Source of the DNA: Gnetum montanum
Taxonomy: Eukaryota > Plantae > Gnetophyta
Direction of reading: 5' to 3'
Assembly: GCA_015680685.1 (NCBI GenBank)
Contig: MNCI01000312.1
Span: forward strand, 1 to 64,000
Length of the DNA stretch: 64,000 nt
In this document: piece after piece, positions 24,567-62,014 of the stretch
Layout of the letters: each line of letters begins with the position of its first letter
Numbering within the stretch: position 1 is the first letter of the stretch
Position numbers and translations under genes: made by a program
Notes under the pieces: model-generated
Databases searched by the model: none
The model's input: only the letters and a program-made list of their open reading frames with translations
What the model was told of the DNA's origin: nothing

Positions 24567-24589
24567 GTACAAGCTCAGGTACGTGCAAA

Positions 24590-27223: not shown

Positions 27224-27228
27224 GTCAT

Positions 27229-32509: not shown

Positions 32510-33150
32510 GACCATGAACCCAATTTAAGGTCTTAGTAGACTGCAACCTTACTAGTTTAAGGTCCTAGTAGATCATGCTATGCAAGTTTATAGTCTTAAT
32601 GGACTACATTGTGCTAATTTAACATTGTGACCCAAGGACAAGCTATGCTAGATTAGCATCATAGCCGACAAATGCTATGCCAATTTAACATTGTAGGGGA
32701 TGAGCTGTGCTAGTATAACATTGTAACAGATGAAATGTGCCAGTTTAACATCATAGTGGATGAATACTATGCTAGTTTAGCATCATAGTAGACGAATGCT
32801 ATGTCAGTTTAGCATCATAGTGGATGAATGTTGTGCTAGTTTAGCATCATAGCAAATGAGTGTTGTGCCAGTTTAGCATCACAGTAGGTGAATTGTGCCA
32901 GTTTAACATTGTAGTGGATGAATGCTTTGCTAGTTTAATGTTGTAGTGGACAAATTTTATGTGTGTATGCCAGTTTAACATTGTAATGGACGAATGCTTT
33001 GCCAGTTTAACGTCATAGCAGATGAATGCTTTGCCAGTTTAATGTCATAGTAAATAAGCTGTGCTAGTTTAACATCATAGTAGATGAATGCTTTGCCAGT
33101 TTAATGTCATAGTGGATGAATGCTTTGCTAGTTTAATGTCATAGTAGAAA
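32510..33150 (-). repeat. E3 3' tandem array (~33-34-bp units, ATGATGYTAAACTRG core on the minus strand)
   Basis: Roughly 18 units of the type GATGAATGCTTTGCCAGTTTAACATCATAGT on the + strand. Confidence 0.9.
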
Positions 33151-33159
33151 AATTTTGTG

Positions 33160-33397
33160 TGTTGCCACAGGGATCTTGATAAGGGGATCTTTCATGATGT
33201 CCCTTGACTCTAGATCGAGAGCCTTAAACTAGATGGTTAGGCTAGTCTAGTGGTGCTTTTATGGATGCTATGTACTCATTGTAGGCTATAGGCTTGAGGT
33301 CTAAGCAATGAAGGTCAATGCATCACTAAATGTCACCATGAGGTCCTGTGAGGACTAAAGGTGAGAAGATTTTCTCCTGCATAGCCATGTCGTGTTC
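33160..33397 (-). pseudogene. E3 pol N-terminal stub; the rest of pol is deleted
   Basis: Minus-strand SPLVLTGPHGDI..CIDL and KALDLESRDIMKDPLIKIPV match the E2 pol start (APLIIGGPCGKIARDIDI; KPLHIEAEKITEDPLTETPI). The stub abuts the 3' array directly. Confidence 0.7.
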
Positions 33398-33984
33398 CTA
33401 CAAAAATAAACCAAAAGAATTTCAAGTGGCACCTATTTTAATGAAGTTAGGGTTCACTACACCTCACCCAACTACACTCTCCACTGGGCATTTGGTGTAG
33501 AGCATAGTTTCAGGTTGGTGGATCATTAAATGACCTCAGGAGGGTATATAGATGGTGTTTTACCATGGTAACTTGTCATTTTTTCCATTTCATCATGATG
33601 TTGGAAGTGTAGTCTTGTTGCTACTTCTGCCATCACTGTCAATGGAGAGTGTAGTTAGAAAAAATATGACACACTGGAGTGGACATCTTCACCCAAGGTT
33701 GGTGAACATTACAGAGGGAGAGAAAGTGTTAAGCCTTCTACTGTAGGTGTGTGGAGGAGAGGAGGCTGTTGGTGTCAACTAGGTACATTGACTATGCTCT
33801 TCCCATTTTTCTATTTTGTATTTGTTCTTATGATTTTTGGAAGGCTTGAGAGTGTAGTCCCATGGTGTTGCCTTGTGTGCCCTACTACGATAGTGGCCGC
33901 CACAGTTGCATGCCATTTGGGATGTGGTGTGATGATTGGGAGGAGTTGGTGGTAGGGAGTTACTATGTGGGAGGGTTTTGCTAG

Positions 33985-35258
33985 TGAAACACCACAAAAT
34001 TTTGAGCTTAGTACTGTTCCAACAAGAATCGAGCCAAGTCATAATGTTCCCTAGCATGACTAAAGCTTGAGGGCCTCACAGACAACTTCCAGCAGAGTCG
34101 AACTCAACGAGGAGCAGTTCCTTGAGACCCGTCGATGGCCACGACAACATTTGCTATCAAACATGGCAACTTCGGAGCTCAAAGTACTTAGTTTACACTA
34201 AGTATGCATTCTCAACGTATACGCCCGATATTCACAGCGTATATGCCCAGTGTATACGCCCCAGATTGCATCCCCAGCGTAGACACCCAACGTATACGCC
34301 CAGTGTAGACGTTCAGCGTACACGCCTAGCGTACATGCCTCACAGGTACAGTCAACAGGTACGACTGATGTATACGCCCGACATGCAATCCCCAAAGACG
34401 GCATGGAAACGACATTGCAGAGCAAGACTTGGTACGAGGCATCGACTCATAGGAGAAGAGCAACCATCAGCGTATATGCCCAGCGTATATGCTCAACATC
34501 CACAGCATATACGCCCGGCACGCCCAGAGCCTACGCCCACCAGATACAGCGTATACGCCCAGTAGAGGCAGCATGTTGTACACTTGTAAATTTTGTTCTT
34601 TTGCACCCAGTCAACGTGCCACGTGTCGCCCAACCCGAGTCAAACATCTAAACCTGTATAAAAACCCCAATTTTTCATTAGATAGGGGGGGGGGGGCAAT
34701 TTTGAGCAAATCAGAGAGAAAAACAGAGACGCTAAGAACGAGAGTAGAGAACCTTGTACGCTGGACCTCAACCCTATACTCTAAGCATACAACCTCCACA
34801 CTGTGCCTGCAGTTTGAACCAGCACATAGTCATCCCTACATCCACCGGGGCTATTCATTCACCTTATGTGAAAGCCACAATTGCGTTATACTGGTGCATT
34901 GTAATTCTCACCTTGCAATAATATTGCTGCATTTTCTTCCTAAAATCTATTACAGTTTTCCATTTATCATTGCATGTTTGCTGTTTACGCTCTGGTATGT
35001 TTACGCTCCGTTTACATCAGTTACGCCGTTTACGGCTTGTTTTACATCAGTTACGTTGTTTACATATAACCCAACATATAGCACTTTGGTGTACGTTCGG
35101 GGAAATCCTTGCCTGATCCGTGTGCGGACCGCTCAAGGTACTCTACCTTAATTAATTCCAGCTTGCCCTTAAGCGAAGGTAGGATCTTCTGTGCGTGTCT
35201 GGTGATCCCCCGATTCTTGTTTCCTTCCAGCCAGAGACTGATGATTTAGGATGGTACA
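33985..35258 (+). repeat. E2 5' LTR
   Basis: TGAAACACCAC...GGTACA, followed by the PBS. Confidence 0.95.
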
Positions 35259-35961
35259 GAAATTGGCGCTAGAAGGAGGGCCTGACTACTTAAAACTTAC
35301 TGTGCTTCAGAACTCTCAGTGTCTACGCTATTGAGTATACGTCATCCTTGTCCACAGAACTCCTAGTGTCTACGCTGTTGACTATAAGTTGACCCTATTT
35401 GCAAAATCCCTAGCGTCTACGCTGCCAAATATACATCGCACACACGCCACGCTGTAGACTTTGTCTACGCTGAACACAGAACTCTATTTACACTGCTGAC
35501 ATATATGCTACACACTCTATGCCATAGACTCGTTTACGCTACTGACATATACGCAGCACACTCTACGCCGTAGACTCGTCTACGCTGCTGTTTACTTTAC
35601 GCTGCACACTCTACGCCATAGACTCATCTACGCTACTGCTAAGTTTACGCTGCACTCTCTATGCTGTAGGCTCTGTCTATGTTGTACGCTGACTCTGTCT
35701 ACGTCGTTCAGTACACGCTACACGCTCTACGCCATAGATTCCGTCTGCGCTGCTTAGCATATACGTTGTACGCTCTACGCTGTAGATTCTCTACGCTGCC
35801 ACTATATGTTGTATACCTATACACTGTCATTGTACGCTGGTCATTGAAGCCTATACGCTAAGACCCAGTTTATATGCTGTACGCCACGAATGTAGGTTTA
35901 TGCCGTACTAGGTATACCAGTTGCATATCCCTTCACTGTGTTGTATTCTCAACCGTTCATC

Positions 35962-38900
35962 ATGAACACCGCAAACTCCACCGCTACAACCACATCGGTC
36001 ACGGACCGTGTAGCCAGCATGGTCGTTCAACATCCCGTGGTACAAGCCATAGTGGGGCGCTACCGGTCTCTTAGATTGCAAGGGAGAAGCCCATCGTCTA
36101 ACATCATAACTCAAGACCAGTACAGTTTTATATGCGTGAAAATACAAGTCGGCCTAGCTATGGACCGAGCCGAAATGGAAGTTAAGAGGCAATACAAACT
36201 TTTCTGTAGGGGAGGACAAGAGTTCATTCCTTCCTCATACGATATCATCCCCCTTCCAGAGCCTTACTCTAAGCTCATCACACAACTCCTCCTGCAAAGG
36301 AGCCAGTCTCTAGATCAGCCTGTAGTAAATCCTCAACTGGAAGAGGAGGATGACTTCGCAGCCCAATCTAAGCATGAAGATTCGTATCATACTCTTAGTC
36401 CACAAACCTATGTCAACTCGTTGTTTCATCTAGCCATAGGGGAAATTACATCCCTTCAACCATTTAGATTCACCCAAACACAAATACCTTAACCAGAATC
36501 ATTCGCAGTTGTTCATATTCCTCCTGCAATCGACCCGCAACTCAATACACTCCCTCTTGCTATTCTCCCTGTGGCAACTGTAGCCCCATCCTCGCAAGTA
36601 CAACCCCCCCCAAAATAATGTAGGAGAAACCTTCCTACCTCGAGTGATCGAGATGCCACATGTGATACCGGCATCTACGTCCACTCATTATATCCCCCGG
36701 ATCCAAACTCACGGAGCCCCTTTCACCGCTGTAGCCCAACAAGTCCAGGGGGTTCCTACACAAAACATGATCAGGCAATGGGCAGCAATTGGTGCTCAAT
36801 CACATCAACCCCCTCACTATAAAATACCACTTCACACAATTCCATTGGCCAACATCCCTCAAGGACAACCACAAAAACAACAACCCCTTACTTATAATGT
36901 GCCACCCCTAGTACCAACCGCTATAAATATCCCGCAAGTATAGCCCCCAACTACACAACTTTCCGCCCCCAACTACACAACTTTCCGCCTTCGAACCCAC
37001 TGCCCAACAATCTAACATGTATACCGTACAACATCCCAAAGCTGCTATCTCACCTAGCGCCCAGGATTAGGCTGATGCCAAAAAATTAATGAAGGAGCTA
37101 ACTGATGAGGTCAAACGCCTCAAAACCAACCCCGACAGAGAACTGAAGGTAGTAGACTTCTATCACGATGACCCTATCAGCTCTTCGGTTCTACCCCTAA
37201 CATTACCCAAGGGTGTATCTTTGCCTACGCTGACCAAATACACAGGGGAAATAGACCCCAACGCTCACCTCATAACATTTAAATTAGAGTGTGCACTACT
37301 TCAGGCATGGCCACATGCCATTCTACGAGTGTTCCCCATGTCTCTCGCTGGGAGAGCACTTGATTGGTATCGGGCCTTGCCACGTAACTCGATATCTTCT
37401 TTGGAAGATTTGTTGCACCAATTTGTCACCATGTTCAAGTATAACTTGAAACCCGAAGCAACGCTAGATAGCCTCATACAGGTCAAGCAAGCACCCCTTG
37501 AACCTGTCCAGAAATTCATCCAGCGATGGAGTGCTGCTCTTAATGAGCTCCATGAGCCAATCCCAGAGACGTATCTCCTTACCATTCTAAAAGGGGCTGT
37601 CAACAATTTTGTGAAATCCAAGCTATACTATCTCAATGCGTGCACTCTGAGTCAAGCATTTGTACAAATTAAGAATATAGAGGAGGTAGCACAAAACAAC
37701 CATGATCCCACATATTTAGCATTTAAGAATTAACACAGTAAAAAAGACAAAGAAAAAGTTAAAATAATGATAGCAGCAGTATCAGAAACACAACAAGCAA
37801 ATATGGGACAACAAAGAAAACTGCCTATGGCCCCTACTAATTACACCTAACCTACTGCTGCGACCGCACCAAAATCATCCTCATCGCAGAACCCAACACT
37901 GAACCGTACGAGAAACTTCGAGAGGAAAGAACCCTCTCAATACACACCACTACCCATGAAACCATCGCAGTTGTTCGACCAACTCCTGAAGGCTGGATTA
38001 ATGAAACACAAATAGTTGTCCCCTGCAGCCATCCAAAGGCATGATCGGTTCTGTCAACTAGTTTAGAACCCAAGCCTAGCGATGCCAAATGAGCCCCTAG
38101 TACTAAAAGGCTTTATAATGGACCGCTTCTGCGATTATCACCAACGTAATGGACATGGCATGGATTACTGTTTCACCCTAAAGCAAGACATCCAACGAAT
38201 GATCGATGGAGGTCAAATCACTTTTGATGAGGCCAACCTGGTCCAACCACAAAACCAGGCCATGGGTGTGTACAAAGACCCTCTAAATACTAAAGAGGCA
38301 CCATACGTCATTAACACGATCTACCTTGATAATGAACCTGAAACACCTAGCATTAACACCGTCTACTCCAACCATGACCAGAAAATGCCTAACAAACCAT
38401 TTGTAGTGCGCATTCCTCCCACTATACAAACATCATTACCTCAGTCATCATATTCACCGTAGAAGCCTTATGTTGTCCGAGTACCCCCCGCCGTAGCAGC
38501 TTCTAACACCCCGACACGCAAAAAACCATACGTGGTGCGCGTACATCCAACGGTACTACCGTAAACATACCAACACCTTCTATTTGGCCTGCCCCCTACG
38601 TAGTCCGAGTACCACCAGCCGTCACAATAGCGGAGGTACAACCTCTAGCTAGGCCAACTCCCTACGTCGTTAGGACACCCGAACGTCCTAGTGATCACCA
38701 ATCCTCTATTTTGCAAACACACAATAAACCCAGCCCTTATGTCATCAAGGTGCCCAGCCGGCCTGGCACTCAACCGCATACAACCGTCCAACCACAACCT
38801 CGCCTGACTCCATACGTAGTACGAATCCCAAGGTAACCTGAGGTCCCAAAAAAAATCGCACCCTTGCGCCACACACGAGAACGCTTAGTGGACAAGCTTA

Positions 38901-40181
38901 CACGCGAACGCTTGGAGAAGGAGCGCCAACGACTAGCCTTAGGCCCTCCCAAACCTACCCCACTAAATGTAGTACCCATGACATCACCTAACAATAAACT
39001 GAATAGAGGCCATGAGGGTGAATCATCCATAAAACATGATACGTCTAAATCAACGATTTCGGGAAAAAATGATAAACTAATGATGCACGAAATAAAACTG
39101 TTGGGCCCAATGGACCAAGTCACTGCCGACAAACATACGTCCAACAGTAGAGACCTAGCAACAACCCTAACACAAGTCACGCAAGCACTCAAGCAAAAAA
39201 ATACTTCATTAAGTTTATATGACCTAGTGCTGACATCTCAAACCCATCGCGAAGCTTTAGTGCACATGTTAACATCTATCCCGGTAAGCGAGGACTTGCC
39301 TCCAAATGAACCTTTTTCATGCGATAATGTACTCCCCTTAGGGGTCAGCTTCCAAGCCATTAAGTTTTCATGATGACAACATCAAAGTGGATCAAAAAAT
39401 GGGAGAGGTAACAACAGCCCCTATGTTCATAACAATACGAATAAACCAATTCAAGATACATAGGGTCCATGTAGATGATGGAGTTGCCACAAACATAGTA
39501 CTATATCCCATCGTCGAACAACTAGGGCTTACAGAGCTAATCAGACCAACCGCCACCACATGCTTGAAATCATTTAGCGGGTTGCGCGTGATAGTCAAAG
39601 GCACCATGACTTTAGACTTCATAGCAGGGGATCAATTCCCCACATCTGTCGACTTTGTGGTAATCGATGAAATGCCAGGGTTCAAACTAATACTAGGAAG
39701 GCCCTGGCTAGCCCACCTGAAAGCAGTCTCATCCCCGATACACCAAGAAATTCACCTGCCTTATGAAGGTGGCGAAATCATCATACATGGGGAGGCTGTT
39801 ACACCCATCATCTCCTCGTACATAGACACAGACCAAGGCTCAGAGGTTAAGCTTGAAGAGCCTAGACAACACGACATAAAGGAACAACAACTAGTAGGCG
39901 ATAATCCTTTAAACACAGAAGAAAACCCACCTAAAATAGAAATACCTGAGCCTGACATTGTACATACGCAGTCTCACTTAGAAACCACAACTGACACAGA
40001 AACTATAATACATGCAGAAGCGCAAGAAAACACTAACGCAAGAAAAATTCCATCAGACGTCCCTTGGGCTGAATTACCATTCAACGTGATCAGCGAAGGG
40101 GACGCTGAATACAGAATCATACCCACTAACGCATCGCCTAATGTCAAAATGAGAAAAATCAAAAAATTACTAAACCAATAA
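35962..40181 (+). pseudogene. E2 gag-protease (stops and frameshifts)
   Basis: Collinear with E1 gag-PR: KYTGEIDPNAHL, FCDYHQRNGHGMDYC, VHVDDGVATNI and LILGRPWL. Confidence 0.9.
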
Positions 40182-40184
40182 ACT

Positions 40185-40420
40185 ACAAACTGTCCGAAAT
40201 GACGTTAAACTACAACAAGTCCAAAAAGACACTAAACTACATTCCAAGTCCGGAACGACGTTAAACTATCATGTCCGCAACAACATAAAACTAGCCATGA
40301 TCAGAAATGGTCGGTCAACCAAGAAATCCACCCATGTCATTCGAAATGTCCCTTGCTTACGCTGGGGCCTGAAATGGCCTTAAACTACGCATATGGCCCC
40401 AAATAATGGCCTTAAACTAG
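40185..40420 (+). repeat. E2 TAAACT-core repeats, left flank of the cassette
   Basis: GTCCGAAATGACGTTAAACTA and ATGGCCTTAAACTA units. Confidence 0.8.
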
Positions 40421-40778
40421 ATCATCCACTTATACTTTGTCTTTCTCCCAAATTCTGGCTCACTATTCAAATTTACGCTTGCATTGTCATGTTGTCAATA
40501 ACAATTTTCGCAATTATCTTTCGTTTATCATAACACTCCTACTCATAAGTACATTCGTGCACTACACTTAAACCACAAAAACAAACCAAAACATTTTGCA
40601 TTGCCATGTCGTGTTTACAATTAAACTCAAAATCAACAAAAAGTTTTTTTATACATATACATGTAATGATGTACAATTACAAGAGTTAACTGATTTTATT
40701 CATCTGTTCAATATAACTTGAAATTTTCAATTTACAATCCCCGTATAAATTTGAGTCAGCATAATTTTACAACAAAAG

Positions 40779-43700
40779 CTAAACATCAGGGACAGGAGGA
40801 TCATCCCCTTTGGACCCGTTGGCATCATGGACCCCCGCTCCACTGGGGCTAGCTTCTTGGACATCATCATCACCTTGATCCTGGAGATGCAAAATAAACA
40901 ATCAACATAAGGACAAAAGGAAAAACTTTCAAACATTATTTAGTGAACGAATTTCATAATAACAAAATGCTTACCGTAGGGGATCCCCCTAAACCGAATT
41001 CCAGTTGGCGAAGGATTTCCTCTTCTGAGACACTAGTCCAATCGGTCCCATCAAGACCTAGGTCGACATCTACCAAGGCCTTCCCCTTGTCAATAGCTGA
41101 CCAGTTGGGATGCTTTAAATGGAATTCACCCTAGTAGGGGATTCCATCTCAATAGTTGTATTTTGAGCAAAGGTATCAAACGCAGAGCACAGACCCAGAC
41201 CCTCTACAAACATTTCTAGCTGACGCTTCTCAATGAATACTTCTTTCAATGATTTCTTATAATGGTGCTTGTGCTTCCTCTCATCCTGACCCCACTTACG
41301 CACCTTGGAAGAAAAAGCCTTCCAATCTTGTCATTTAAGGTTCAATAGATCTACCTGGGCCTTGCGCTCTGCTAGTTTCTGGGTTAGTGACGCGTGGTGA
41401 TTGAGTAGGTTCCAGTATCTAGTATACGTGACCTCGGAAGTCCGCCAAGAGCGATCACCACTTAGTTTAGCAGAGGCGAACTCATACCGAGCCTTGAAAT
41501 CGTCATGCTCAACTGACAACTCGAAAACTTCCTTCTCCTTTGCTTGAACTTGCAACCACAACTGCTCGATGGAACGCCTACAAGTCCAAAGCGATTTGGC
41601 GTTTTGTACAATACCTTCTGTCACCTTGTCATAAAATGGCCTTGGTACCTTCTTGACTTCTAGGGATAGTGTAGGAAAACTCTCAATGCTAACTATCTTA
41701 GATGGATCCCACCTCATTTTGGCACCTACGCACACGAAAAGAACAAACGCTAAAATGACAAAAATGGGGTGTGAAACTCTAAAGCTTCAAAAAACTTGAA
41801 ACATTTGTACCTATTTCAGGGTGGGCTTCCTGAATACGTTCAACAACCTCCTCAGTGATACCAGCCACAAAATCCATTTTACTTGGCATTTCGGTCCAAG
41901 TAAATGGTCCATGAGTATGGGATGGAGTAACCTCTGCGGTCCTTTCAGGGGGAACCGTTTTCATGGGCACATCCAGCCGCAGCATTCTGGTTTCACTACC
42001 TTCGTCTGGAAGCGATGAAAACATAAAAGTAAAAAATCATAAAATAACAACTCAAAAAGTGACATAATAAAATAAAAGAAAACATACCGTGTTCTTTGTC
42101 TCCTTCTGGGTTTGGAGGGTCACCAAGGTCCAACCTTTCCTTGAGAAAGCTACTGAACATCTCATCGACACCACCCTGGTCATCGACTATTTTAGTCTCC
42201 GTGGTGTTTTCCCGTAGCTCCTCCGTCTCCTCCACCTGATCCTTGCCGACCTCTTCCTCCTCAGTCATTAACTCCTTGGTAGCTTTCTCCTCTTCAATGA
42301 TAGTCTCTAATTCCTGCCTCCTCACTTCTCGAGTCAAGTCTGAAGGCATCAGTGGCATGTAAGCAGTCAAAATAAAAATTATAAATAAGACGAAAATCAT
42401 AAAGCAATAAGTGTACTGAGTTTACTTACCCTGGATAGGCATCTTGAACCAGATGCGCTTCACCCATGGCTCGTCCACATTTGAGGCCTCCTCGGTTGAA
42501 CGTTCATGCTTCGAGAGCTTCGACTTGGCCTTACCAATGGTTTCTTTGATGACCCATTCTGCCCTCTTGGTAGTGTAAGGCACATCGTTTGGTTCCAATC
42601 CTACACTGTCACATGTATGGATTGAGGTACCAGATGAACCTCCCGTCGTGATGGACACTGACTCATCAATCCCCTTAGGAGCATCCTGGGATTCAGCTGT
42701 TTCAAACAAATGGTTGATCCATGGGCGGGATAATTGACCTCGATCCCGTAGGACATATTTATTGTCCACGCGAACCACTTGAAACTTAGCTAAGCGGTGA
42801 ATATAGCTGACAAATAATGCAATGGTAAAGTGGAATTTTGCCTTGACATTCGAGTGCAATCGCACTATCTCCTTGTGAAGGCTCGACAACAAAAATTGGG
42901 CCTAGTTATAACACATCCCGGTTTCTAAGACGGTTCGCATAATATGCACAGCTTCAACACCAAGACTCCGCACATGGGAAAGGAATTTAGGGAATACCCG
43001 TGCCCTAAATAGGGGATATAATTGATTAACTTCCTCAACCTTTGACTTCCCCTACATAGGGAATCCCTTAGCACCCTTGGTAACACCCAACCAGGCCTCT
43101 AACTCACGTACTAGATGGAGCTCTTTCTGAGCCCTGTCCAAAACTACATTTACACCATCTGCCGGTACACCAAATAGGTTCGAAAAGAATTTGGCTGACA
43201 GATGGAAGACTATCTTAACACCCTTAATCCAGGTGCTGTAGTAAGAGACAGACTTGTCGAATGAATCCACGATCCCGATCATTTCTGCTATCGACACATC
43301 AGGGCTCGGGGTTGTAAAGAGCTCCATAAGGCTGGCATCATTTAAACAATGGACAATGAATGGCAGGGCATGGGTGCGCAACCATTTCTGAGCCTTACTA
43401 ATCTCCCCGAACTTCGTCGAGAGGGTACTCTCAGTTCGTCCTATTGTGATAGGGTCTCCGCTGGGAGGGACATCAACTGTAGATACAATTCGAAACCATC
43501 ACATCAATATAACCCACGACAGTTGAACAAACACGTTAACATATCGAGAAAATATTGTCACTTACCTTCAGTAGTGGACTTAGAGGTGCCACCCAAGTTA
43601 GAGTCATGAGGGAAAATTGGTCCCTTATGCGACCAGTCTTCATGCAACCACCCACGAGCTTTGCATTGTGCGAACGCTCTAGAAAATCATTTGTGAAAAT

Positions 43701-45285
43701 GGACAATATCACCCTTGGTTTGAGCTAACACATCTCCACGAAGGGTGGGACCTGCCATAAAGGTCTCTAGAGTGGTATGAGCTAGGGCAAGCCCATCATC
43801 ATCAACACATGTTCTGTCTTGGTTAACTTGGGGCCTACAAAAGAACGGTTGTCAAAATAGAAGCAAATGCCAAACGATAAAAAAAGAAAAAAAAAAGAAA
43901 CAACAAGCTTAAACGATCTTACCTATCTACCCGGTACACTGTGCCAGGAGGGTTCTAGAATAGCATGTGTGCACACGCAGTTAAAAATAGAGTGTTGTTT
44001 AGATAATAATGCCCTCGCGGAAATAGGGCCCACATGAGCACTAACGGGCGAGTAGACCTGGGCCTGCTAGAGGAACCGTCCTTGATCACAAGCGGCCCCT
44101 CGTCAATGTCTTCCATGAAGATCGTGACACCCTTCAAGGCTCCGGGCAACATAGCCTCAAGCATGCTCTGTGCCACTTATTCACTCAGATGCGACCAGAC
44201 AACTACCTTAAATCTGTCCAAGATGAAGGCAAGGAATTCACACGCCCTTCCCTGAACCACACCCCTTTGTTTTTAATGGTGAGATTAGGGGTAGGTTCAT
44301 CAGCCTCAAGGGGGCCAAACCATGCTAGTACTCCAACTAGCTTAACTACCAGGACAAAAGGCTTAGTGTCCCTACTAGAAACCAAAATGTAATGATAAAT
44401 CAGCCATACATGAAAAGGGGATGAAACAACAAAATTCCATATTGTAGGCCAACACTTAGAAAAATTACAAACTGTTTTCAATCAGCGTATACGCTGTTCA
44501 ACAAACTGTTCACGCTCAGTGTATACGCTATAAAAACTATCAGTGTATACACTATGAAAACTCTCAGCGCACACGCTGCTTGAAAGGAACAAACTGTTCA
44601 CGCTCAGTGTATACGTTGTGAAAATCCTCAGCGTATACGCCGTGAAAACCATCAGCGTATACGCTGTGAAACAATTTATGCTGAACATTGTGCAAATAGT
44701 TTACGCTGAACGATGTGAAAACAATTTACGCTATACGCTATGAAAACAGGTCTACGCTATACCCCGCCTGAAAAGAATACACTGTTTACGCTTAGCGTAT
44801 ACGCTATGAAAATCATCGGCGTAGACGCCGAGAAAACCATTAGCGTATATGCTATGAAAACAGTTAGCGTACATGATGATAAAATCGTCTATGCTTCATA
44901 CTGATAAAATCGTTTACGCTATGTACTAGTAAAATTGTTTATGCTACGCACTGACAAAACAGTTTACGCTATATACAGTCAAAACCGTCTACGTTGTACG
45001 CTATAGAGACTCTCTACACTGTGAACCTACAGGCCTTCTACGCTAATTATCTATGCCGGGCATATACACCGAAATCCTCTATGCTACCGAGACTATCTAC
45101 CCTACATAACATGTACAGATGAAAATAACTAACAGAGGCAGGATTAGAGCTTACCTGTGTGATGATCCAGGCCATGATGGAACCCTTAGCCTAGGCAGAC
45201 ACTACAGCATGGCCTCGCTTTCCTCCGCGAAAGTTAGATTAGGCCCCTTCCTCCCCTGGCCTTCTACCTCCTTGCCCTTACCCAT
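40779..45285 (-). pseudogene. E2 antisense spliced accessory gene, ~1065 codons: FCP1/NIF-like pseudo-phosphatase, plant transposon accessory domain, acidic linker, coiled coil. Exons 45285-45155, 44371-43923, 43834-43566, 43476-42430, 42339-42088, 42005-41811, 41725-40975, 40880-40779
   Basis: Seven minus-strand GT-AG introns of 783, 88, 89, 90, 82, 85 and 94 bp. Splice phases join the track ORFs in frame, apart from two 1-nt frameshifts (~44250, ~41140) and a few nonsense codons. A homologue with matching introns lies at 53390-56869. An in-frame upstream ATG also exists at 45384. Confidence 0.85.
44480..45060. repeat. TACGCT / CAGCGTATACGCTG motif array in intron 1 of the antisense gene
   Basis: Many copies of the same motif that fills the family A LTR and 5' UTR. 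Confidence 0.8.
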
Positions 45286-45587
45286 TTCGGCGTTCTCTAC
45301 GCTGCAATTGATAGGGTCTACGCTGAGGTCTAAACCGCATGCTGAATTGAATCTTGTACGTTGAGTCTGAGCCTTTACGCTCATGCTGAGTTGGGGCCTC
45401 TACGCTCACGCTTACGCTAAGTTTAAGCCTCTACGCTCACGTTGAGCCTCTACGCCGGAGTTGAAAGTTTACGCTTACGCCGAAGTTGGAGGTTTACACT
45501 GGGGTTTGGTTGTTTATGCTTATACTGAGGTTTACGCTCATGCTCAGTCTCACTTCAAATGCACAATGCTCACAAATGACATCCCCA

Positions 45588-45601
45588 CGCTATATATAGC
45601 G
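45588..45601. promoter_or_regulatory. Palindromic TATA box, putative internal promoter
   Basis: CGCTATATATAGCG is a perfect 14-bp palindrome, ~300 bp upstream of the antisense ATG and ~470 bp upstream of the pol ATG. Confidence 0.5.
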
Positions 45602-45811
45602 CTGAGCCGCACCGTCGCTGCTGCCTTGCATTTTGTTTCTTTTTATTTATTTATTACTCATTTTAATTAAATTTGTTCAAAAATACAAAAAAATAATATA
45701 TATAAAACAAAAAAAATACTACCACATGTTGATTCCCTCGTAAACCAACTTCAGACGTCCACACTGAACATTTTTGCGCAGACTCTCCTGTGCAAATTTA
45801 ACGGTGAACAT

Positions 45812-45950
45812 CTGGCCCGGTATGGCCTTAAACTGCCATGACGGCCCGGTAAGGCCTTAAACTGCCACCTGCGGATCACAGTCGGCTTGGTAAGGCCTTA
45901 AACTGTCACACGCAGCCCATCTTCGGCCTAGTATGGCCTTAAACTACCAT
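45812..45950 (+). repeat. E2 TAAACT-core repeats, right flank of the cassette
   Basis: Four GGCCYGGTAWGGCCTTAAACT-type units. Collinearity with E1 resumes here. Confidence 0.85.
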
Positions 45951-46070
45951 GTGTCCCGGTGTGATAATAAAACACCATCATGCATGTACACACGACTTAT
46001 GCTGCTAGAGAACATGGAACAATACCTGTCAGCTCATTTTGCTCTCTGTTTATTAGCAGGAGCAAGCCTG

Positions 46071-49000
46071 ATGGATTATCAGCATTTATCCGCACCGTTA
46101 ATCATCGGTGGGCCATGTGGAAAGATCGCAAGGGACATCGACATAAATCTCATCCACTTATGTTTATCAACGAATGACGCAGTCATAGCCTCAACACAGC
46201 AAATGCTATATAAGTACAAAGGTACGACAAAGCCCCTTCACATAGAAGCTGAAAAAATCACCGAAGACCCGTTGACCGAAACCCCCATCTCCATGCCCGA
46301 TGGAGAAATTAAAATATTAAAATTAAGTACATTACTACAACCTCAACTTGCCAAATACATAGAGGATGTTCTTAGGGACAACATAAAAGCATTCGCTTGG
46401 TCATACATGGACATTCCCAGATTGGATCCTTGAATCATCCAGCATAATATTATCCTTGATCCAAAATTAAAGCCAGTGAAACAAAAGGCCCAAAAGGTTA
46501 AACCTGAGGTGGCATTGGCAGTTCACGATGAGATCACCAAGCTTTATCAGGCTGGTTTCATTCGGGCTATCGATTACGCTGATTGGGTATCCAACATGGT
46601 CATTGTCCTAAAAAAGAACAAAAGTATTCGCTTATGCATTGACTTCCGAGATCTCAATGTTGCAACCATAAAAGATGATTTTCCCCTACCCAGCATCAAT
46701 CAACTTGTTGACTCGACCTCTGGGCACACCCTATTATGTTTTATATATGGCTTCTCAGGATACAACCAAATACGCATTAACCCGGAGCATCAGCTCCGGA
46801 CTGCCTTTATGACACCATGGGGAACCTTTTGTTACACAATGATGCCCTTTAGTCTCAAGAATGCTGGGGCCACATATCAAAGGGTGATGACATTCATTTT
46901 TAGCGATTACATGCTGCACTTGCTCAATGAATATGTTGATGAGATCGTGGTTAAATCGAAGACATCAAAACAACACGTACAAGACCTTGACTTGGTGCTA
47001 AAACGTTGTTTAAAATATGAACTGAGACTTAACCCAAAGAAATGTGTCTTTGGAGTCAAAACAAGAAAAATGCTTGGATTCATAGCCTCAGAAGCAGGAA
47101 TACGAGTAGACCTTGATAAAGTTAAGGCCATAACAAACTTAAAACCACCTGGCAACCTTACTGAACTTCGAGGTTTACAAGGTGGATTACAGTTCATCAG
47201 ACGTTTCATAGAAAAACTAACAGACAAGTTGAAACCTATGAACCACTTGCTACGCAAGAACGTCCATTTTGAATGGACTCCACAGTGCCAGGAAGCATTT
47301 GATAATATTAAAGCAACACTTGCCTAATTACCCACGGTTTATCCACCTCAAAATGATAAACCATTTTACATCTACCTGGCCACTTTGGATTCGTCAATCA
47401 CGTCCATGCTTTGCCAGAAACAAGATGATGGAACCGAAGTCTCTATCTATTACTTAAGCCATGCATTAGTTGCCCACGAGAAAAGGTATAACAAGGTGGA
47501 GAGGTCATGTTTAGCCCTAGTCTTTTCCTTAAAGAGATGGTGACATTACCTCTTCCATAACCAGGTCAATATAATTTGCAAGGATAATGTGCTCAGAGCC
47601 ATCATAGGAAACATTTACGAGACAAGTCGAATAGCCCGTTGGAAAGCCATGATAGCCAAGTTTGACCTACATTACATAGTGTAATCATCAGTTAAGGGTC
47701 AAGCCATAGCGAATCAAATGACCATGTCACCAACGCACGATCAAGCAACGATAGAGCCAGAATTCCTAGATGAAAATGTAAGTGCAATAGACATAGTACC
47801 CAATGACTACGATGCCATTTTAAAATTTGATGGAGCATCCACCTCTCGAGGGGGAAGTGCTGCCGCTGTCATCACCTATCCCTTCGGGGAGATCAGAAAC
47901 CCTTTGCTTATCGTTTCAACTTTCGTTGTACCAACAACATAACAGAGTACGAAGGTCTCCTTGGAGGTCTCATGGTAGCACTAGCTTCAGACATCACAAG
48001 CCTTGTGGTTAGAGGAGATTCACAACTGGTTTTGAACCAAGTCACAGATATTTATACATGCAAAGCACAACATTTACAACTATACTGTGACTTGGCAAAA
48101 CACTTAATGAGTCGATTCGAAAACATCGATGTGCAACACGTCTCTAGAAATGATAATACTATCACAGATGCATTGGCCACCCTAGCGTTAAATATATCAC
48201 CTGACATGTTCCATAAGCTCCATAATCAGTTGTGCCAAACCAATAACCGATACTCTCGATACATTGCCAATTGCATCTGTTAGTACAACACACGCGATAG
48301 AATGGTATGACGAGATAAAAGAGTACCTTCTACGCGGTGAAACACCGTAACACTTAACGAATGCACTGGTAGGAGACACATTGTGTCGTCGATCCTACGA
48401 AGGCATACTGCTAACATGTGTTGGTAGCGCTGATGGCCAAACCATCATTGAGCAAGTACATGACGGACTATGCGGAGGACACATAGCACCTAAGGCAATG
48501 GCAAAAAAGATAAGACGCTTAGGCTATTATTGGCCACATATGGAGTATGACTATCTATCCAAGACTAAAACATGTAATACCTATCAAAGACATAGTAATC
48601 TGATCCATGTCCCACCAAATGAGTTGCATACGGAGAAAATCACATGGCCCTTTCAAAGGTGGGGGTTGGACCTTATCGGACCAATAACACCCTCATCTTC
48701 CGAAGGGCATAGTTTCATCATAACCGCAACCGAATACTTCACGAAGTGGGTAGAAGCTATTCCCCTTCGAAAGACCACATCTAAACACGTATGCAACTTC
48801 ATTCTTGAGAACATTGTGACCCGTTTTGGCATCCCCATGACCATCATCACTGACAACGTACCGCAATTCAGCAGTGCCGAAACCAAAAATTTCTATGAAA
48901 ATCTGGGGTTCAAAAAATCATTTTCATCCCCTTACTACCCTCAAAGAAATGGGCAAGTAGAGGCCACAAACAAAACCATCATTATAATACTTAAAAATAT

Positions 49001-49502
49001 GCTTACCCAAAGCAAGAAAAGATGGCACGAATAGCTGGTATACGCATTGTGGGCCTATCGTACTACGCATCAGACTTCAACAGGTAAAACACCATATAGT
49101 CTGGTTTATGGTTCAAAAGTTGTTTTACCTTTGGAATTAGAGGTACCATCTTTAATGATCACACTTTCTGGACTCCTCAACGAAGGACAAAAAAATGACC
49201 TGCGCATCATTGACCTGGACTTGGTGGAGGAGGAACACATACGTACACTCGATCAAATTGAATGGTACCAAAAAAAATAATGGTAACGCCATCAGCATGA
49301 CATTCATAAGTGCCTTATCAAAGAAGGCGACCTTGTACTCAGAGCCGTTCGGGAACACCTGGACAAATTTTCAGCCAACTGGGAAGGGCCCTACTTGGTC
49401 ACCAAAGCATATTACAACGGAGCATTCAAGTTAGCTGATATGGAAGGGAATGAGCTCGCAAATCTGACCAATCACTTGTTCTTGAAACCGTTCCATGTCT
49501 GA
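46071..49502 (+). pseudogene. E2 pol: RT-RH-aRH-INT (stops and frameshifts)
   Basis: Collinear with E1 pol: FAWSY, RLCIDFRDLN, YVDE (YVDD mutated), LKFDGAS, GDSQLV, WGLDLIGP and WEGPY. Confidence 0.92.
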
Positions 49503-49524
49503 ACATAGTCAGGTACGTGCGAGT

Positions 49525-49895
49525 CTTGGCATCATGACTATAAACTGATACCACAGCTTGTCTTGGAATCATGACGGTAAACTGATACCACAGCTCGTCC
49601 TGTAATTATGACAGTAAACTGATACCGTAGAACAGTCCTGGAATCATGACTTAAAACTGATACCACATAGTATCTGCAATGACAATAAACTAGCACCCGT
49701 CCGGTACGATAGTAAACTGCCACAGTTGCATTCACCAGACTCCGCTAAGACTATAAACTAGTTTGCCTCTTCATGCTTCGCTAAGACTAGAAACTAGCAA
49801 TGCACCGTCTGTCATGACGCTAAACGGGAAATGTCCAATGGGTCATGACATAAAACTAACCCATGATAGTCATCTATGACTATAAATTGGCAATT
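49525..49895 (+). repeat. E2 3' tandem array
   Basis: ATCATGAC-N3-TAAACTGATACCAC units, as in E1. Confidence 0.85.
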
Positions 49896-50951
49896 TCATC
49901 TCTGGTTACTCAATCGGTGGCTGCATTCAAGCTTCATCAGAATCGCTGCATCACTTGCCAATCGGCCGATCCTAACGCCATTACTGCCATTCACATACAG
50001 TGCCTGAAATCTCATCAGGTGCATTTGTTTCATCAGTTGCTATCCCAGTCTAAGCTTACTCACTCACTCATGGTTTTCTTATCTTCTCAGAGTTGTGTTT
50101 GTAGGATGACGCTCAGAGGTGTTTGTACAAGAATGCACTTCGTCATAAGAAGCAAGGTGAGATGATGTTCACACACGTGGCAAGACTAAATCAAACCATT
50201 CACTAGTCCATCTCCCATTTCATATCCCGCCTATCCTTCAACACCTTATACTTGGTTACATCTCGAACACATCCAGTACAGCCTGAAACATCGAACATAC
50301 CATTGGATATTGCGCCACTCTTAAGAGGTTGCAACCCACCACATGGCACTAGAGCATGAGTACAAGATCAAAACAAAGCTCTTCAAAAAAAAGAAAAGAC
50401 ACTTGGCACTTCCCATACAAGCCCCAGGCAGGAAGGTATTTGTCTTGGAACCAAGTGCTCGTGTCTAAAACAATCAAGAAACATCCTGTTGCATGGCTTT
50501 GGCTCTCCGCCAACAGGCTCCCCCTAAACACTAAACAAGGGCCATGTTCCTCCATAGAATGTAACACATCATCACGTGGCTTTGGTTTTGCCAATAAGGC
50601 CTCTTGGATACTAACCAAGAGTCTTGTTCCACCAAAGGACACACATCTCATGTCTTTATTCCGAGTCTGCTAAACAATGGTTATTGACAAGGATCAGCAT
50701 GACCCGTGTACACATCAGAACATCCCCTTCACCATGCACAACCTTGATTCCTCCCAAATCCCCACAGTTCCCCTCTCCCTATCAAATACAAATTCCATTT
50801 CCCATAATCCCATGTACTACTGAACACGGTGCGAGGATGTCTAGTCAGGTGGCAAAGGACAAAGTCTCTATCGAGTTGCTTGTGGTGTTTTGCACTTATT
50901 TGTCGATGCTTCTCAGGTCGATTCCTCCAAGCGTCAACAAAGAGGGGCCAA

Positions 50952-52219
50952 TGAAACACCATAAAATTCTGAGCTTGGTACTATTCCAACAAGAATCGAG
51001 CCAAGTCATAATGTTCCCCAGCATGACTAAAGCTTGAGGGCCCCATAGACAGCTTCTAGCAGAGTCGAACTCAACGAGGAGCAGTTCCTTGGGACTCGTT
51101 GACGGCCACAACAACATCTGCTATCAAATATGCCAACTTCGAAGCTCAAAGTACTTAGTTTACACTAAGTATGCATTCTCAGTGTATACGCCCAGCCTAT
51201 ACGCCCAACATTCACAGTGTATATGCCCAGCGTATACGCCCCAGATTGCATCCCCAACATATACGCCCAGCATAGACATCCAACGTACATGCCTAATGTG
51301 TACGCTCAGCAGGTACGACTGATGTATATGCCCGGCATGAAATCCCCGAAGACGGCATGGAAACAGCATTGCAGAGCAAAACTTGGTACGAGGAATTGAC
51401 TCATATGAGCAGAGCAACCATCAGTGTATACGCCCAGCATCCACAGTTTATATGCCCAACGTATACGCCCAGCACGCCCAGCGTATACGCCCAGAGCCTA
51501 CGCCCACCAGATATAGCATATACGCCCTGTAGAGGCAGCATGTTGTACACTTGTAAATTTTATTCTTTCACACTCGGTCAACATGCCACATGTCACCCAA
51601 CCCGAGTCAAACGTCTAAACCTGTATAAAAACCCCAATTTTTCATTAGATAGGGGGGCAATTTTGAGCAAACCAGAGAGAAAAACAGAGACGCTAAGAAC
51701 CAAAGCAGAGAACCTTGTACGCTGGACCTCAACCCTGTACGCTGAGCATACAGCCTCCACGTTGTGCCTGCAATTTGAACCAGCACATAGTCATCCCTGC
51801 ATCCACTAGGGCTATTCATCCGCCTTGTGTGAAAGCCACAACTACGTTAGACCGGTGCATTGTAATTCTCGCTTTGCAATAATATTTCTGCATTTTCTTC
51901 CTAAAATATGTTACAATTTTCCATTTATCATTGCATGTTTGCTATTTACGCTCTGGTACGTTTACACTCCGTTTACATTAGTTACATCGTTTACGCCCTG
52001 TTTTACATTAGTTACGCTGTTTACATATAACCCAGCGTATAGCACTTCGGTGTACGTTCGGGCAAATCCTTGCTTGATCTGCGTGCGGACCACTCAAGGT
52101 ACTCTGCTTTCGTTAATTCTAGCTTGCCCTCAAGAGAAGGTAGGGTCTTCTGTGCGTGTTTGATGATCCCTCGGTTCCTGTTTCCTTCCAGCTGAAGATC
52201 GACGATTTCGGACGGTATA
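50952..52219 (+). repeat. E2 3' LTR
   Basis: A direct repeat of 33985-35258, lying between the PPT and the TSD. Confidence 0.95.
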
Positions 52220-53389
52220 GCTAGGCTGTGGGAATTTTGCTAGGTTATCGGGATTTGGCATGTGTGGGGGGGAGGGAGGGGTTAGGACCCTGTGCACATC
52301 ATGCATTGCAATGTGGCTACAGAGGCTAAGGCTGCCATTGCATGCTACTTCGTAGCTATAGGGATCATGTTTGTTATTTTTGTAAGGAGGGGGGCGTAGG
52401 CCCCAGGGAATTTAGGGCCCTGTGGCCATGACTATGCATTTTGTGGTGTGGTTGCGATCCATGCCTAGGTTTTGTTGGGACATGTGTAGAAATGAGGGTG
52501 ACTGTTCCTTCTTCCCTCGTTCCCCCCCATTTTTCTATTCTAGTTGTAGGGGTGTAGGGTTTGGGATTGCACATTGCATATCAACATAGCTGTAGGGGCC
52601 ATGGCCACAATTGCATGCAAGTGCTATAGGATTTTATTTTTTGTGTTTTTTTTTGTTTGGTGTGGCATAGCCACAGGGTCTGGGATCATGCGTGGGCTAC
52701 ACATGGACTAGGGATATGTGTAGGGATTTTGGGTTGTGCAGGGTTATTTGTGGCCATAAAGGATATGATCATTCTTGCATGTCGTAGCATGGTTACTAGG
52801 GGTTGTGGCCATGATCAGCAAAGTTTGCGCATCTATTTTTTTTATTTTTATGTTTTTTGGGTACAATAGTGAAGGTGTGACCTATCAAAATGATGGGGCA
52901 AAGTGGGTTGTTGGGTGCGGTGCTGTGGGAAGACTATGCTCTCCATGGCCATGGGACTACACTCTCCATGTGTGGAGGGTGTAGTTTGCAGGGAAAGTGC
53001 TTGGAAAAATGTATGGTCCAAAGTTAGCCAAATTTTGCAATTTATTTTTTTGGGACTACACCCTCCATGGAGGTAGTTTGGAGTTAGAAAAATTTTGTAG
53101 TTTTTAGACTACACTCTCCATTGAGGCAATCCAGAGTTAGTAAAAATTTTACCAAAATGTTGTTAACCATGCATGATGCTAAACTTGCAAAATGTAGCAT
53201 TAATCCTATAAAAGCATGCTATACCCTAGTGAGTGCTAGGCACGTCAAACAAGTTAAGTGATGTCCTACACTTAAGGGGCACCAAAGTATATTGCCAAAA
53301 TTGCATTTCTGCTAATAATTTATAATGTTTATATCAAACTTTTATATCTATGTGTACTAATACTTTGCCTATTGCCTGTTAATTGCAAG

Positions 53390-56300
53390 GTGCTATTGAA
53401 GCTCATTCTAATAGTGATTGAGGTCATAGGTATCCTCTATTACATGAGTGAACTTGTCCCTAACATGCCTACACTAGATATGTGGGTGGACCATCAAGTG
53501 ATTTGGTTTTAGACAAGGGATCAAGAGTTTCTGGAATACCTACTACAATAGTTCAATGTGATCATGTGGTCACACTTGGTAGTGGAGGTTGTTAGCATCA
53601 TCACCGAGATGTTGCTACCTAGGGCTAAATGGGACATCTTGAAGTGCATCTCATATGAGCTTGTTGATGATGTTAATGGGGTGAGAGGCTCAGGTAGAGA
53701 TCCCAAAGTGCTTATCAGCTATCTAGAGTATGACACATGATAGTGTTTGCTTATCATAATAAGAGAAATACCATTTTTATCACATAGTAGTTGCATACCT
53801 TGTTCCAGAACCCACCTAGAATCTTCCATTGTGTTGGAGGGTAAGTGCTTCTATTGCTCTCACAGTATTTTGTGCTATTTGCCTATATGAAGTTGTTAAC
53901 ATTTCTATGGTCAATGCTAGGTTTAGAGTTGATGAAGACAGCTTGCATGATGATGTGGATGCTTTAGTCTTAACTCGTACTACCTTAGAGGTGTTCTTAT
54001 CTCTCACAAATGTTTGAGCATCCATGCTTGAGTAGGTGGGGCACAATTTGAAGGCTTACATCTCCTAGAATCCAAAGGCATATGAGCGATGTAGGATCAA
54101 TGGTTGGTTGGATGAGGAGTGGGTTGTTGGTGAGATTAACACCAAAGAGGTTTTTATAGCACCATCCCCATCTCACACTTCATTTGTACCACGTACGTAT
54201 CTATGTTTTGGTCCATGTGGTTGCTTGTGTATGCCTTTCAGTTTGCTTCATTTGCATAATGCTAATGTTGTTTTACATTATGTTGCAGGGAAAATCTCCT
54301 TAGCCAAGGTGATAGTGATCACCATAGGCCACATAGAGGCCACCCTCATCATGAAATATGGTAATGTAGAGGATGCGTAACATTGGTTGTGCCAAAAAGT
54401 ACCAGATGCACTAATGGCTTAGCTCATGCATGCTAGGTTAATGAACCTATTCTTAGTCCTTAGCTTGAGTATTTTGGTGTTTGAAATAGTCACCATCATT
54501 GACTCCTTCAGTAGTGATGTCAGGTAGTTTATCACTTGGATGTGCGATGTGATGGAAGTGTTGAACCTCAGTAAGGCCTTCTTCTCAAATCTCTTCGACA
54601 TTCTTGCTGATGGCCTGATGATTATCGATAAGGCCAGCAAGGAGGTGGACCACCATGGGGAGATCAAGGACTGGTTGGAGGCCACTCAATCCCACAAGGG
54701 CATATTGATCAAAGATGTGCTAGTGCCTTAGGTGTGGGGGCTCTACCCTCTATTCCATGCTCGTGCTTTTCCAGAGCTGCTTTCCCATGAAAATATTCTA
54801 GTGGTGGAATAGGCACAGGTGATAAAGGAGGTGCTGCTAGAGGGCACGAGGTTTAACTAGGCTATGTACATAGCCACTGGCTTACGTGTGAAGATTTCTA
54901 GGCTATGATTCAACCTCTAGGTGAGGTCCTATGTCCATTTTGCATTCTTCGCAAGATACCTGCAAAGGTTCGCGGAGCTTTTGGTTATGCAAGATGATGG
55001 ACGATGGGTAGTGTAGGATCATGAGTAGCTATCTAGGCCATGGATCAAGCATATGTTCTCAACCACACGTGCATAGGACCCCCCAGAGGAGATTGATGAT
55101 TCATTATCAGTAATGACCAAGGGTCTTATTGGGAACTTGCATTACTCATGCAATAGTGCAGGTGAGGGTCCCCCAGTTTGCACTGGGGACATGAGTAAGG
55201 CAGATCACTACATAGCTAAGATGGTGGGACCATCCAAGGCCAAGATTAAGAGGTTGAATCCTCCAGAGGAAGCTACCCCTAAGATTAGGAAGCTAAGCAG
55301 GAAAACAATCCAAATAAAGCTACAAAGCTTGCATGTAGATGTTGTAGGTTAGTATGCATAGATTCTTAGATGCCTTAGTTATATTCATGTAAATGTTTCT
55401 TTATTTTTATGTTTTTTTGTTATGCCATATTATTAATTAGCTAATGATGTGCTATGCATACTAATATGATATATGTGTATATGTGTTAATTACAAAAAAA
55501 GAAGAGAGGGCTACATAAGTAGCGACTAAGGTGGTAGCAAAGGAAGCACCTCCTCAAGCTGAGGAGGAGGAGGCTCATAGAGAAGAGCCTCATGAGGTGG
55601 CATAGGCTCTCCAATATTTTGAGAAAGAGGGGTTTGTCCACCCTAATGGGGGTGATTTTTATAGTTTTTTCAATGGTACGTAACTAGGTGAGCCCCCTAC
55701 ACTCACGCCTGAGCACTTGCTAGGTAATCAACTTATACTGCCATCTATCTTCCCTTGTTTTCTTTAGTATATTTAGTTGTTAGGACATATCTTAATTGCA
55801 TCATTTTATTATAGCATTAGATGTTCTTGTAAGTATTCCCATATCTACCTACCACATGGAGTCGTGGGTAGAGATGCCAGATAAATTGGCCTTCATGGAA
55901 GACATTGTTAGAGACATGGTGGACTGCTTGCAACAAGTAGACCCAAAGCTTAGTATGTGTGCAATGTTTTCATTTTATCCTATCATGCTTACTACTTAAA
56001 TGCTTAGTTTTTGGCTAAGATGTTTTAGTTGTTGCATGTCTACAGGTCCTAAGTTGTAGTGGGACCTAAGCAAGGTGGCCAAGGTGGACATCCTACCTGA
56101 CTTTCCTCCTGAAGTTGATCAGGTACCTCATCACATGTACAAGATATTGAAGAAGTGTGCACTTTCCTATGTGAAGGTGTTGTGGGTCTGTAGGTGCTCG
56201 AATGAGAACCTATGAAAATGTGTGCACAAACTCTAGGAGATGGTGACTAGCCATAATGAGAAGATTAAGGATCTTCAATCCAGATATGACTTCATAGTAG

Positions 56301-57040: not shown

Positions 57041-57224
57041 GCATGACTAGTTGTACCTCATGATGAGCTTTTTTTTAATACATTTTTGCCATGTGATGCT
57101 GTTCATGCTATGTATTACTATGCATATTACATTTGCTGGATGATTATTTTCTATGTGTAAAATTTTATGCTTATGTGACAATTTTATTACATTTGCTATG
57201 AGTGTGCAGGTTTGGGCCATTGCG

Positions 57225-57625
57225 AGCCATAGCGGTACTGGGCCATTGAAAGCCACAATAAGTCTATTGTTAGTTCAAAGCCTTGATGGATCCCATGCTA
57301 GTTTAAGGCCATAGTAAGAGGGCCAATGCTAGTTTTTTGGCCATTTCGGGCCATGTTTTGCCAATTTAAGGCCATAGCTAGCCAAGGTGCTAGTTTTAGG
57401 CTGTTCTGGGCCATAGTGATAATAGTAGTTTAGGGCCATTCTAGGCCTCTGTGAAAAAATTAAAAGTGATAGTTTTATGCCATTCCAAATTGTAGGGTTG
57501 CTAGTTTAAGGCCATAGTCAACTGTGTTGATAGTTTAAGGCCATTTTGGACTATGGCGATGGAGATCAAGAGTGGTATTTTAAGGTCATTCCAGGCCATA
57601 GTGTTGCCAGTTTAAGGCCATGGTA
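57225..57625 (-). repeat. E3 ATGGCCTTAAACT repeat array between gag-PR and the antisense gene
   Basis: Repeated AGTTTAAGGCCAT on the + strand. Confidence 0.85.
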
Positions 57626-62009: not shown

Positions 62010-62014
62010 GAAGC

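Follow-up and report, generated by a model that had tools for sequence, protein, structure and literature searches.

Accessory open reading frames (ORFs) are known from several plant long terminal repeat (LTR) retrotransposons, and the closest described systems are the PMD (PF10536) and TRP28 (PF04195) ORFs of Ogre/Retand elements, AlkB/2-ODD of orchid Gypsy elements, and YgdH of Citrus, in all of which an extra gene, often antisense and with host-related domains, is fixed in an LTR family (PMC7264820, PMC11963269, PMC6317226, PMC9289625). Retand elements typically carry antisense extra ORFs, which lie between pol and the 3' LTR and mostly encode TRP28 (PMC11963269); the extra ORFs treated in another report are dominated by PMD, TRP28, and Athila ORF-1 (PMC6317226), and 15 atypical domains have been reported across 121 angiosperm genomes (PMC9289625). 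According to one review, most accessory ORFs of plant LTR retrotransposons are without an identifiable host source (PMC7264820). We analyzed a 64,000-nucleotide stretch of Gnetum montanum DNA (assembly GCA_015680685.1, contig MNCI01000312.1, positions 1 to 64,000; hereafter the window), plant DNA that carries nested LTR retrotransposons, the element E2 being inserted in the element E3. On the minus strand of E2, antisense to gag-pol and between the protease and reverse transcriptase (RT) regions (40400-45800), lies an accessory gene, and a homologous gene is present on the plus strand in E3 (53.4-56.4 kb). Exon 2 of this gene encodes a domain related to the NIF/haloacid dehalogenase (HAD) type that has evolved under purifying selection, and we consider it reasonably probable that this domain is catalytically dead and serves as a protein-binding module of the accessory protein.

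The position and structure of the gene set it apart from the described cases. Extra ORFs have been described on the 5' side of gag or in the interval from pol to the 3' LTR, whereas that of E2 lies between protease and RT and that of E3 after the protease. At least five GT-AG introns were mapped in the E2 gene (45154-44372, 43922-43835, 43565-43477, 41810-41726, and 40974-40881), and it matches none of the Pfam families of those accessory ORFs. In addition, the orchid AlkB is active, while the domain described here is predicted from its motifs to be dead.

An earlier note on this DNA had read an FCP1/NIF-like phosphatase domain in exons 2 and 3 of the E2 gene. The peptides it quoted are present in the minus-strand translation, and positions 43566-44371 comprise exactly two GT-AG-bounded exons, 44371-43923 and 43834-43566. 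A phmmer search against 1.84 billion representative proteins gave three matches, of which the sole nonrepeat one was P0003 (E=5.4e-4), which comes from Sphagnum and contains two NIF domains; the other two, P0001 and P0002, were dropped as tandem-repeat artefacts. A search with the first domain of P0003 then recovered 147 relatives from 218 candidates (120 of the relatives being listed), and 78 full domains from the first 102 of these 147 relatives were combined with the P0003 domain into a 79-member profile. When run on the six frames of the window, this profile matched two places only, 44242-43940 in E2 and 53408-53650 in E3. The E2 read-through, with X placed at the breaks, scored 41.0 bits, compared to 4.0 bits for the best of 2000 shuffles; the single-frame piece of E3, an element that played no role in discovering the cellular family, scored 21.9 bits (shuffle maximum, 6.0), and a longer E3 read-through scored 21.2 bits (shuffle maximum, 9.8). 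When the profile was built from 21 named land-plant members, with the Sphagnum seed excluded, the scores were 30.3 bits for E2 and 27.5 bits for E3. hhalign matched exon 2 to the cellular family with a probability of 96.4% (E=1.2e-9), in an alignment that covers 139 columns and stops just past the NPP motif. The similarity claimed for the two exons was thus borne out for exon 2 and not for exon 3. The VDDDGL stretch of exon 3, considered as a continuation of the C-terminal extension of the cellular family, was rejected, with an hhalign probability of 0.2% and a hidden Markov model score under those of shuffles. As judged from these sequence comparisons, the NIF/HAD homology is real and is confined to exon 2.

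The closest cellular family found is an uncharacterised subfamily of NIF (PF03031) proteins with a D-x-N-G motif, present in plants and deeper-branching relatives and exemplified by KAH8970694.1 of Sphagnum fallax and LOC116259084 of Nymphaea. Motif I of this family reads D-[LVI]-N-G-L, with Asp in the first position in 73/79 members, Asn at +2 in 74/79, Asp at +2 in 0/79, and Gly at +3 in 78/79. Each Asp of the DD pair (motif IV) is present in 77/79 members, the motif III Lys in 79/79, and a Ser or Thr at motif II in 76/79. The first Asp has also been lost from a few angiosperm members (6/79), which read S/P/G/C-L-[NG]-G, and the moss protein P0003 carries its two D-x-N-G NIF domains in tandem. 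The element domain is collinear with this subfamily from motif I to NPP, sharing with it R..EFL..F.V..WS, LW, NT....NPP, and the +3 Gly, which supports a capture from this group, but it has lost the first Asp, the +2 Asn, and the DD pair, is without the C-terminal extension of the family, is fused to orphan domains, and resides on a mobile element. It would thus be derived from or related to the D-x-N-G subfamily, of which it is not a typical member.

The state of each catalytic motif was followed in both copies and in contigs from four DNA runs. The motif I equivalent of E2 is V-V-K-L-V-G (44334-44349, minus strand), which retains nothing of D-[LVI]-N-G-L but its Gly and its hydrophobic pattern; the core is K-L-V-G in E2 (peptide VKLVG at 44346) and E-V-I-G in E3 (IEVIG at 53417), and the DxDx(T/V) form of active phosphatases is absent from both. 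At the first base of the E2 Lys codon, 97, 98, 99, and 99% of the depth in the four runs differed in a way that gives Glu. The Lys is a private decay of the E2 copy, and other copies carry Glu like E3. No C>A or C>G change that could give Asp reached 30% at motif I position 1 in any of the four runs, and no substitution class giving Asp did so at +2 in two of the four. At the motif IV position, E2 has T-A (43976-43981, minus strand; NTLFLT at 43996), and E3 has Thr followed by a stop (NTIFIT at 53767). The first base of this Thr codon in E2 differed in 98-99% of the depth, which gives Ala provided that the other two bases of this codon are unaltered, and no substitution class giving the second Asp of the pair reached 30% or more in any of the four runs. 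Taken together, and with a caveat on the first Asp of DD, the catalytic acids are lost family-wide, and the loss is shared and old. The motif II equivalent, W-S-H (44191-44197, minus strand), keeps its Ser in both E2 and E3, and the motif III residue is Arg in E2 and, by inspection and depending on the alignment, probably Lys in E3. Each of three window pieces matched none of the NCBIfam families TIGR02250, TIGR02251, and TIGR02245 in a search whose filters drop weak matches.

These results bear out the earlier note where it held that the loss of the acids is common to both copies rather than recent decay, and its motif readings of VKLVG and TA are present in E2 as reported; the Lys and the Thr are copy-specific and do not represent the family state. 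A NIF profile match was found, and the family consensus has lost the Asp residues, again with the caveat on the first Asp of DD. The premise that a DxDx(T/V)-type motif is needed does not fit this subfamily, the +2 Asp being missing from all 79 members of the cellular family; the element has lost the first Asp in addition. Since the cellular family was already without this second Asp, part of the loss predates capture.

Selection on exon 2 was assessed by comparing E2 with E3. The two copies share 46/132 aligned residues (35%), with nucleotide identities of 0.48, 0.64, and 0.26 at codon positions 1, 2, and 3 over 132 codons. Of 1500 neutral simulations run, 1255 had at least 60 aligned codons, and the gap of 0.38 measured for exon 2 was reached by 0/1255, the maximum being 0.31. 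Exon 2 has evolved under purifying selection. The same comparison for exon 4 gave 118/328 identical residues and identities of 0.54, 0.62, and 0.31, and for exon 3 the codon-position bias was not significant (P=0.11). In E2, the reading frame of exon 2 is interrupted by two stops and by a single frameshift near 44244. In the four DNA runs, 31-56% of the depth carries an indel at the site of the frameshift and 89-92% differs at one of the stops, so that the frameshift and one stop are specific to this copy. Exon 2 was matched by 1910-2638 contigs in each of the four runs, which carry four organism labels, and the accessory-gene family is one of high copy number.

Evidence for splicing came from the poly(A) RNA run X15, in which 9 and 7 reads had loose ends at two donor sites. 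Of all places in the whole window, these ends mapped best to the exon that follows, where the splice was predicted (22/30 and 21/30; next best, 18), and the introns joined across are the two 3' introns, 41810-41726 and 40974-40881. Because the ends of poly(A) reads join predicted exons, related copies make spliced antisense RNA. In run X12, whose library orientation is uncalibrated, first-mate-plus depth exceeded first-mate-minus depth in 19/19 bins over 40861-44413, an asymmetry that would fit antisense transcription and may hint at it.

We propose that an ancestral element captured a domain from the D-x-N-G subfamily, already without the second Asp, and that the captured domain would then have lost the nucleophile Asp, to Glu, along with the Mg-binding DD pair. 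An antisense orientation preserves introns during RNA-mediated copying, so the introns of this gene would survive copying through RNA. The accessory protein would comprise roughly 1,000 residues, with its other domains being orphans, and the dead NIF fold may serve for docking on a host protein, the most plausible candidates being partners of the cellular D-x-N-G proteins, and might thereby aid expression or transposition of the element without being essential. A binding module rather than an enzyme is favored because the catalytic aspartates are missing: the element has Glu or Lys at the first Asp and Val or Ile at +2, compared to the strong conservation of the first Asp and of DD in the cellular family, and a pseudophosphatase state is predicted from these motifs.

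Several described proteins bear on this proposal. UBLCP1/HAD-IIID (PDB 3shq), SCP1/CTDSP, CTDNEP1, and Fcp1 are active enzymes with a DD pair. They would have the NIF fold in common with the element domain and differ from it in carrying DxDx(T/V) and DD, the former motif being that of NIF phosphatases (PMC8346121); among PDB sequences, the cellular subfamily matched UBLCP1 best (E=1.9e-12, alignment A3). Fungal Tim50 has a NIF fold without the catalytic motif, acts as a protein-binding module, and has been described as a pseudophosphatase (PMC8346121, PMC13216928), but it is a mitochondrial membrane receptor of another subfamily, and the analogy with it is limited to the mechanism. Fungal NIF proteins with DXNXT have also been classed as pseudophosphatases (PMC13216928). 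These fungal proteins probably belong to the same group as the D-x-N-G subfamily. We presume that the Schizosaccharomyces pombe protein C1271.03c is probably another member of it.

The capture of accessory domains by Gypsy elements is already known, and the gene described here is not a new class of system. What this locus adds is a NIF domain, under selection and probably catalytically dead, in an antisense gene with many introns and an unusual position. The words "FCP1" and "phosphatase" occur 0 times in the main text of PMC11963269; a NIF domain is not named in the results section on atypical domains of PMC9289625, the supplements of which may bear on novelty; and five supplementary files of PMC6317226 (17,418 characters), perhaps not including its large domain table, contained no NIF match. 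No description of an FCP1/NIF domain in LTR elements was found in a literature search whose coverage left out most subscription papers. This locus would provide one plant LTR accessory ORF that is traceable to a cellular protein family. Selection after the loss of catalysis, together with the splicing evidence, makes exon 2 a well-defined target for pull-downs and enzyme assays, and the D-x-N-G NIF proteins are a poorly studied host family that was apparently worth keeping for a transposon.

A number of observations weigh against the proposed origin and role. With Pfam PF03031 alone, the check that the earlier note had suggested, the best match of the post-frameshift piece fell short (E=0.11; 12.6 bits versus a gathering cutoff of 21.8), and the E3 piece was unmatched; it was the 79-member NIF profile that detected the domain. 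Both copies, E2 as well as E3, are broken in the window, and no intact family member was present in the protein and metagenome collections searched: the 607-residue read-through of the accessory gene had no relative among 7997 protein candidates in a word-index search, a four-piece alignment (A1) had none among 1990 longer-protein candidates, and scans of metagenomes yielded 0/596 and 0/285. The family is therefore defined by two decayed copies and read variants only. The first Asp of DD in other copies is unlikely, yet it is not formally excluded, one G>T class lying outside the tallies listed. Among the poly(A) read junctions displayed, none was seen for exon 2, the NIF exon, and most RNA reads were less than 90% alike to the E2 copy (197/234 and 562/698).

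The donor is likewise loosely constrained. A 46-row tree was built from 43 cellular members picked by hand, the more distant NIF protein P0115, and E2 and E3. In it, the two element copies grouped together (100/99) beside angiosperm members, their common branch being very long, but since UBLCP1, SCP, and CPL were left out, as was TIM50, this tree does not fix the donor. A profile of seven deep-branching members scored E2 at 32.1 bits, compared to the 30.3 bits obtained with the 21 land-plant members, and the E2 stretch RPLVLMWAL resembles KPLGVIWAL of UBLCP1. A structure model made from the single sequence had a predicted local distance difference test score (pLDDT) of 41.7, with its fold unmatched, and the docking role of the fold is a prediction by analogy. 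Separately, PDB sequence searches gave MTCP1 only (E of about 0.5) for the single piece and the HAD enzyme 1rku only (E=1) for alignment A1, neither of which was counted as evidence.

Four other explanations were weighed. The domain could be a phospho-peptide reader of the RNA polymerase II C-terminal domain (CTD), or a decoy for it or for CPL/SCP-type phosphatases, that helps the element escape transcriptional silencing. In HAD enzymes, the motif II Ser and the basic residue of motif III are phosphate-contacting positions, and the retention of both, the latter by inspection in E3, speaks for such a role. So does the model of the E3 piece guided by an alignment with 37 cellular relatives (pLDDT 75.9), whose best structural matches were SCP1-type enzymes; its best Foldseek match was SCP1 with E=1.5e-3 (none at or below 1e-3; Z 6.8, root mean square deviation 3.5, 100 aligned). 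This match is circular, however, because the alignment with cellular relatives imposes the fold, and the model indicates compatibility only. The Mg-binding acids, which hold phosphate in NIF-type phosphatases, are lost. Moreover, six cellular members tested were far under the cutoffs of TIGR02245 and TIGR02251 or were unmatched, and none matched TIGR02250. With the nearest family found so far below the FCP1, SCP/Dullard, and UBLCP1-type (HAD-IIID) NCBIfam cutoffs, its link to CPL/SCP-type CTD phosphatases is indirect. Among 16 Arabidopsis SSP proteins, CTD activity has been shown for only SSP4, SSP4B, and SSP5 (PMC8774115). We consider this role unlikely. Equally doubtful is its extension to an old Tat-lineage family, found in several related plant species and also in pol-less elements, whose dead fold would bind phospho-CTD or host NIF partners as an element-encoded anti-silencing or transcription factor. 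Of the suggestion in the earlier note that a host domain was captured and kept as a pseudo-phosphatase, the retention under selection stands, and SCP, CPL, or FCP1 as the nearest family does not.

Alternatively, the fold may be retained for nothing more than a structural or oligomerising function within the accessory protein, without binding any host factor. The conserved positions are largely those of a hydrophobic core (EFL..L..F.V..WSH), and the identity of exon 2 between copies equals that of the orphan exon 4 (35 and 36%), as would be expected from this explanation. Against it, the surroundings of the old active site (the motif I Gly and Glu, the motif II Ser, NT, and NPP) are common to copies whose third codon positions are saturated, and we view a purely structural role as improbable. 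Two further explanations appear to us far less probable still. The domain might be neutral captured cargo that has decayed since capture, its aspartates missing by random loss; both window copies are broken, and the sister element E1 has moved without the block, but the codon-position bias is strong and not reached in the simulations, E2 and E3 have their intron at the same position and in the same phase, and the breaks that were checked are copy-specific, making such a history very unlikely. An atypical active hydrolase, in which Glu replaces the Asp nucleophile, would draw on the acidic Glu at this position in E3 and in the E2 family, on the partial retention of motifs II and III, and on reports that some motif-degenerate phosphatases retain activity (PMC13216928). 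Against this stand the missing acid at +2 and the missing DD pair in both copies, and we give activity very little credence. By the chemistry of HAD enzymes, a protein without the +2 acid and DD has no evident Mg site. The reading that we retain is that of a catalytically dead, selected domain that would bind a protein partner.

The exons of the E2 gene lie on the minus strand. A putative first coding exon (45155-45285) was placed from the phase and is bounded by the GT donor at 45154. Exon 2 (43923-44371) holds the whole NIF/HAD-like domain (approximately 44355-43940), and its homolog in E3 lies at 53393-53841 (plus strand), the intron after NPP having the same position and phase in both elements. 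Exon 3 (43566-43834) is homologous between E2 and E3, with 26% identity. Exon 4 (42430-43476) encodes an orphan domain of about 349 residues that is 36% identical to that of E3, is under purifying selection, and had no match in Pfam, PDB, the protein database, or the metagenomes searched; this domain of some 350 residues occupies 54288-55340 (plus strand) in E3. A 3' exon (40975-41725) is flanked by the introns 41810-41726 and 40974-40881. Arrays of 24-25 bp repeats occur at 44500-44995 inside intron 1, with shorter repeats upstream at 45358-45464, and a similar AGCGTATACGC motif is also present in the LTR arrays.

E2 spans 33985-52220 on the plus strand. Its 5' LTR (33985-35260) is directly preceded, and its 3' LTR (50952-52220) directly followed, by the target site duplication (TSD) GCTAG, and the two LTRs are 90% identical. 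The primer-binding site (PBS) at 35264 is presumably of the tRNA-Arg type. The gag (PF03732) and protease region lies at 37071-40181, and RT, RNase H, a second RNase H (aRH-type, RVT_3), and integrase follow in that order at 46434-49034. An aRH between RNase H and integrase is a mark of Ogre/Retand elements (PMC6317226), and because RT_RNaseH, RVT_3, and integrase follow in this order, E2 is of the Ogre/Retand (Tat) type; of the structural features of that group, E2 has the LTRs, the 5-bp TSD, and the PBS. The sister element E1 (14462-27224) has an RT 86% identical to that of E2, and its protease, which has a weak Asp_protease_2 match, is 70% identical to the E2 protease. The block of about 5.4 kb between protease and RT of E2 is missing from E1, and since E1 is without the whole block, the accessory gene is dispensable for the element.

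E3 occupies 29477-33984 and 52221-63826, interrupted by the inserted E2, and has its gag and protease on the minus strand. A tblastn search of E3 for RT, aRH, and integrase was negative, and the element appears to be non-autonomous, carrying gag, protease, and the accessory gene without RT, RNase H, or integrase. A further gag fragment (63823-64000, plus strand) starts right at the outer end of the E3 LTR, which suggests that E3 is itself nested in another element. Elsewhere in the window, a long trinucleotide microsatellite at 3144-3700 gives rise to spurious ORFs, and an open frame of 1013 codons at 6227-9268 (plus strand) encodes a leucine-rich repeat receptor-like kinase.

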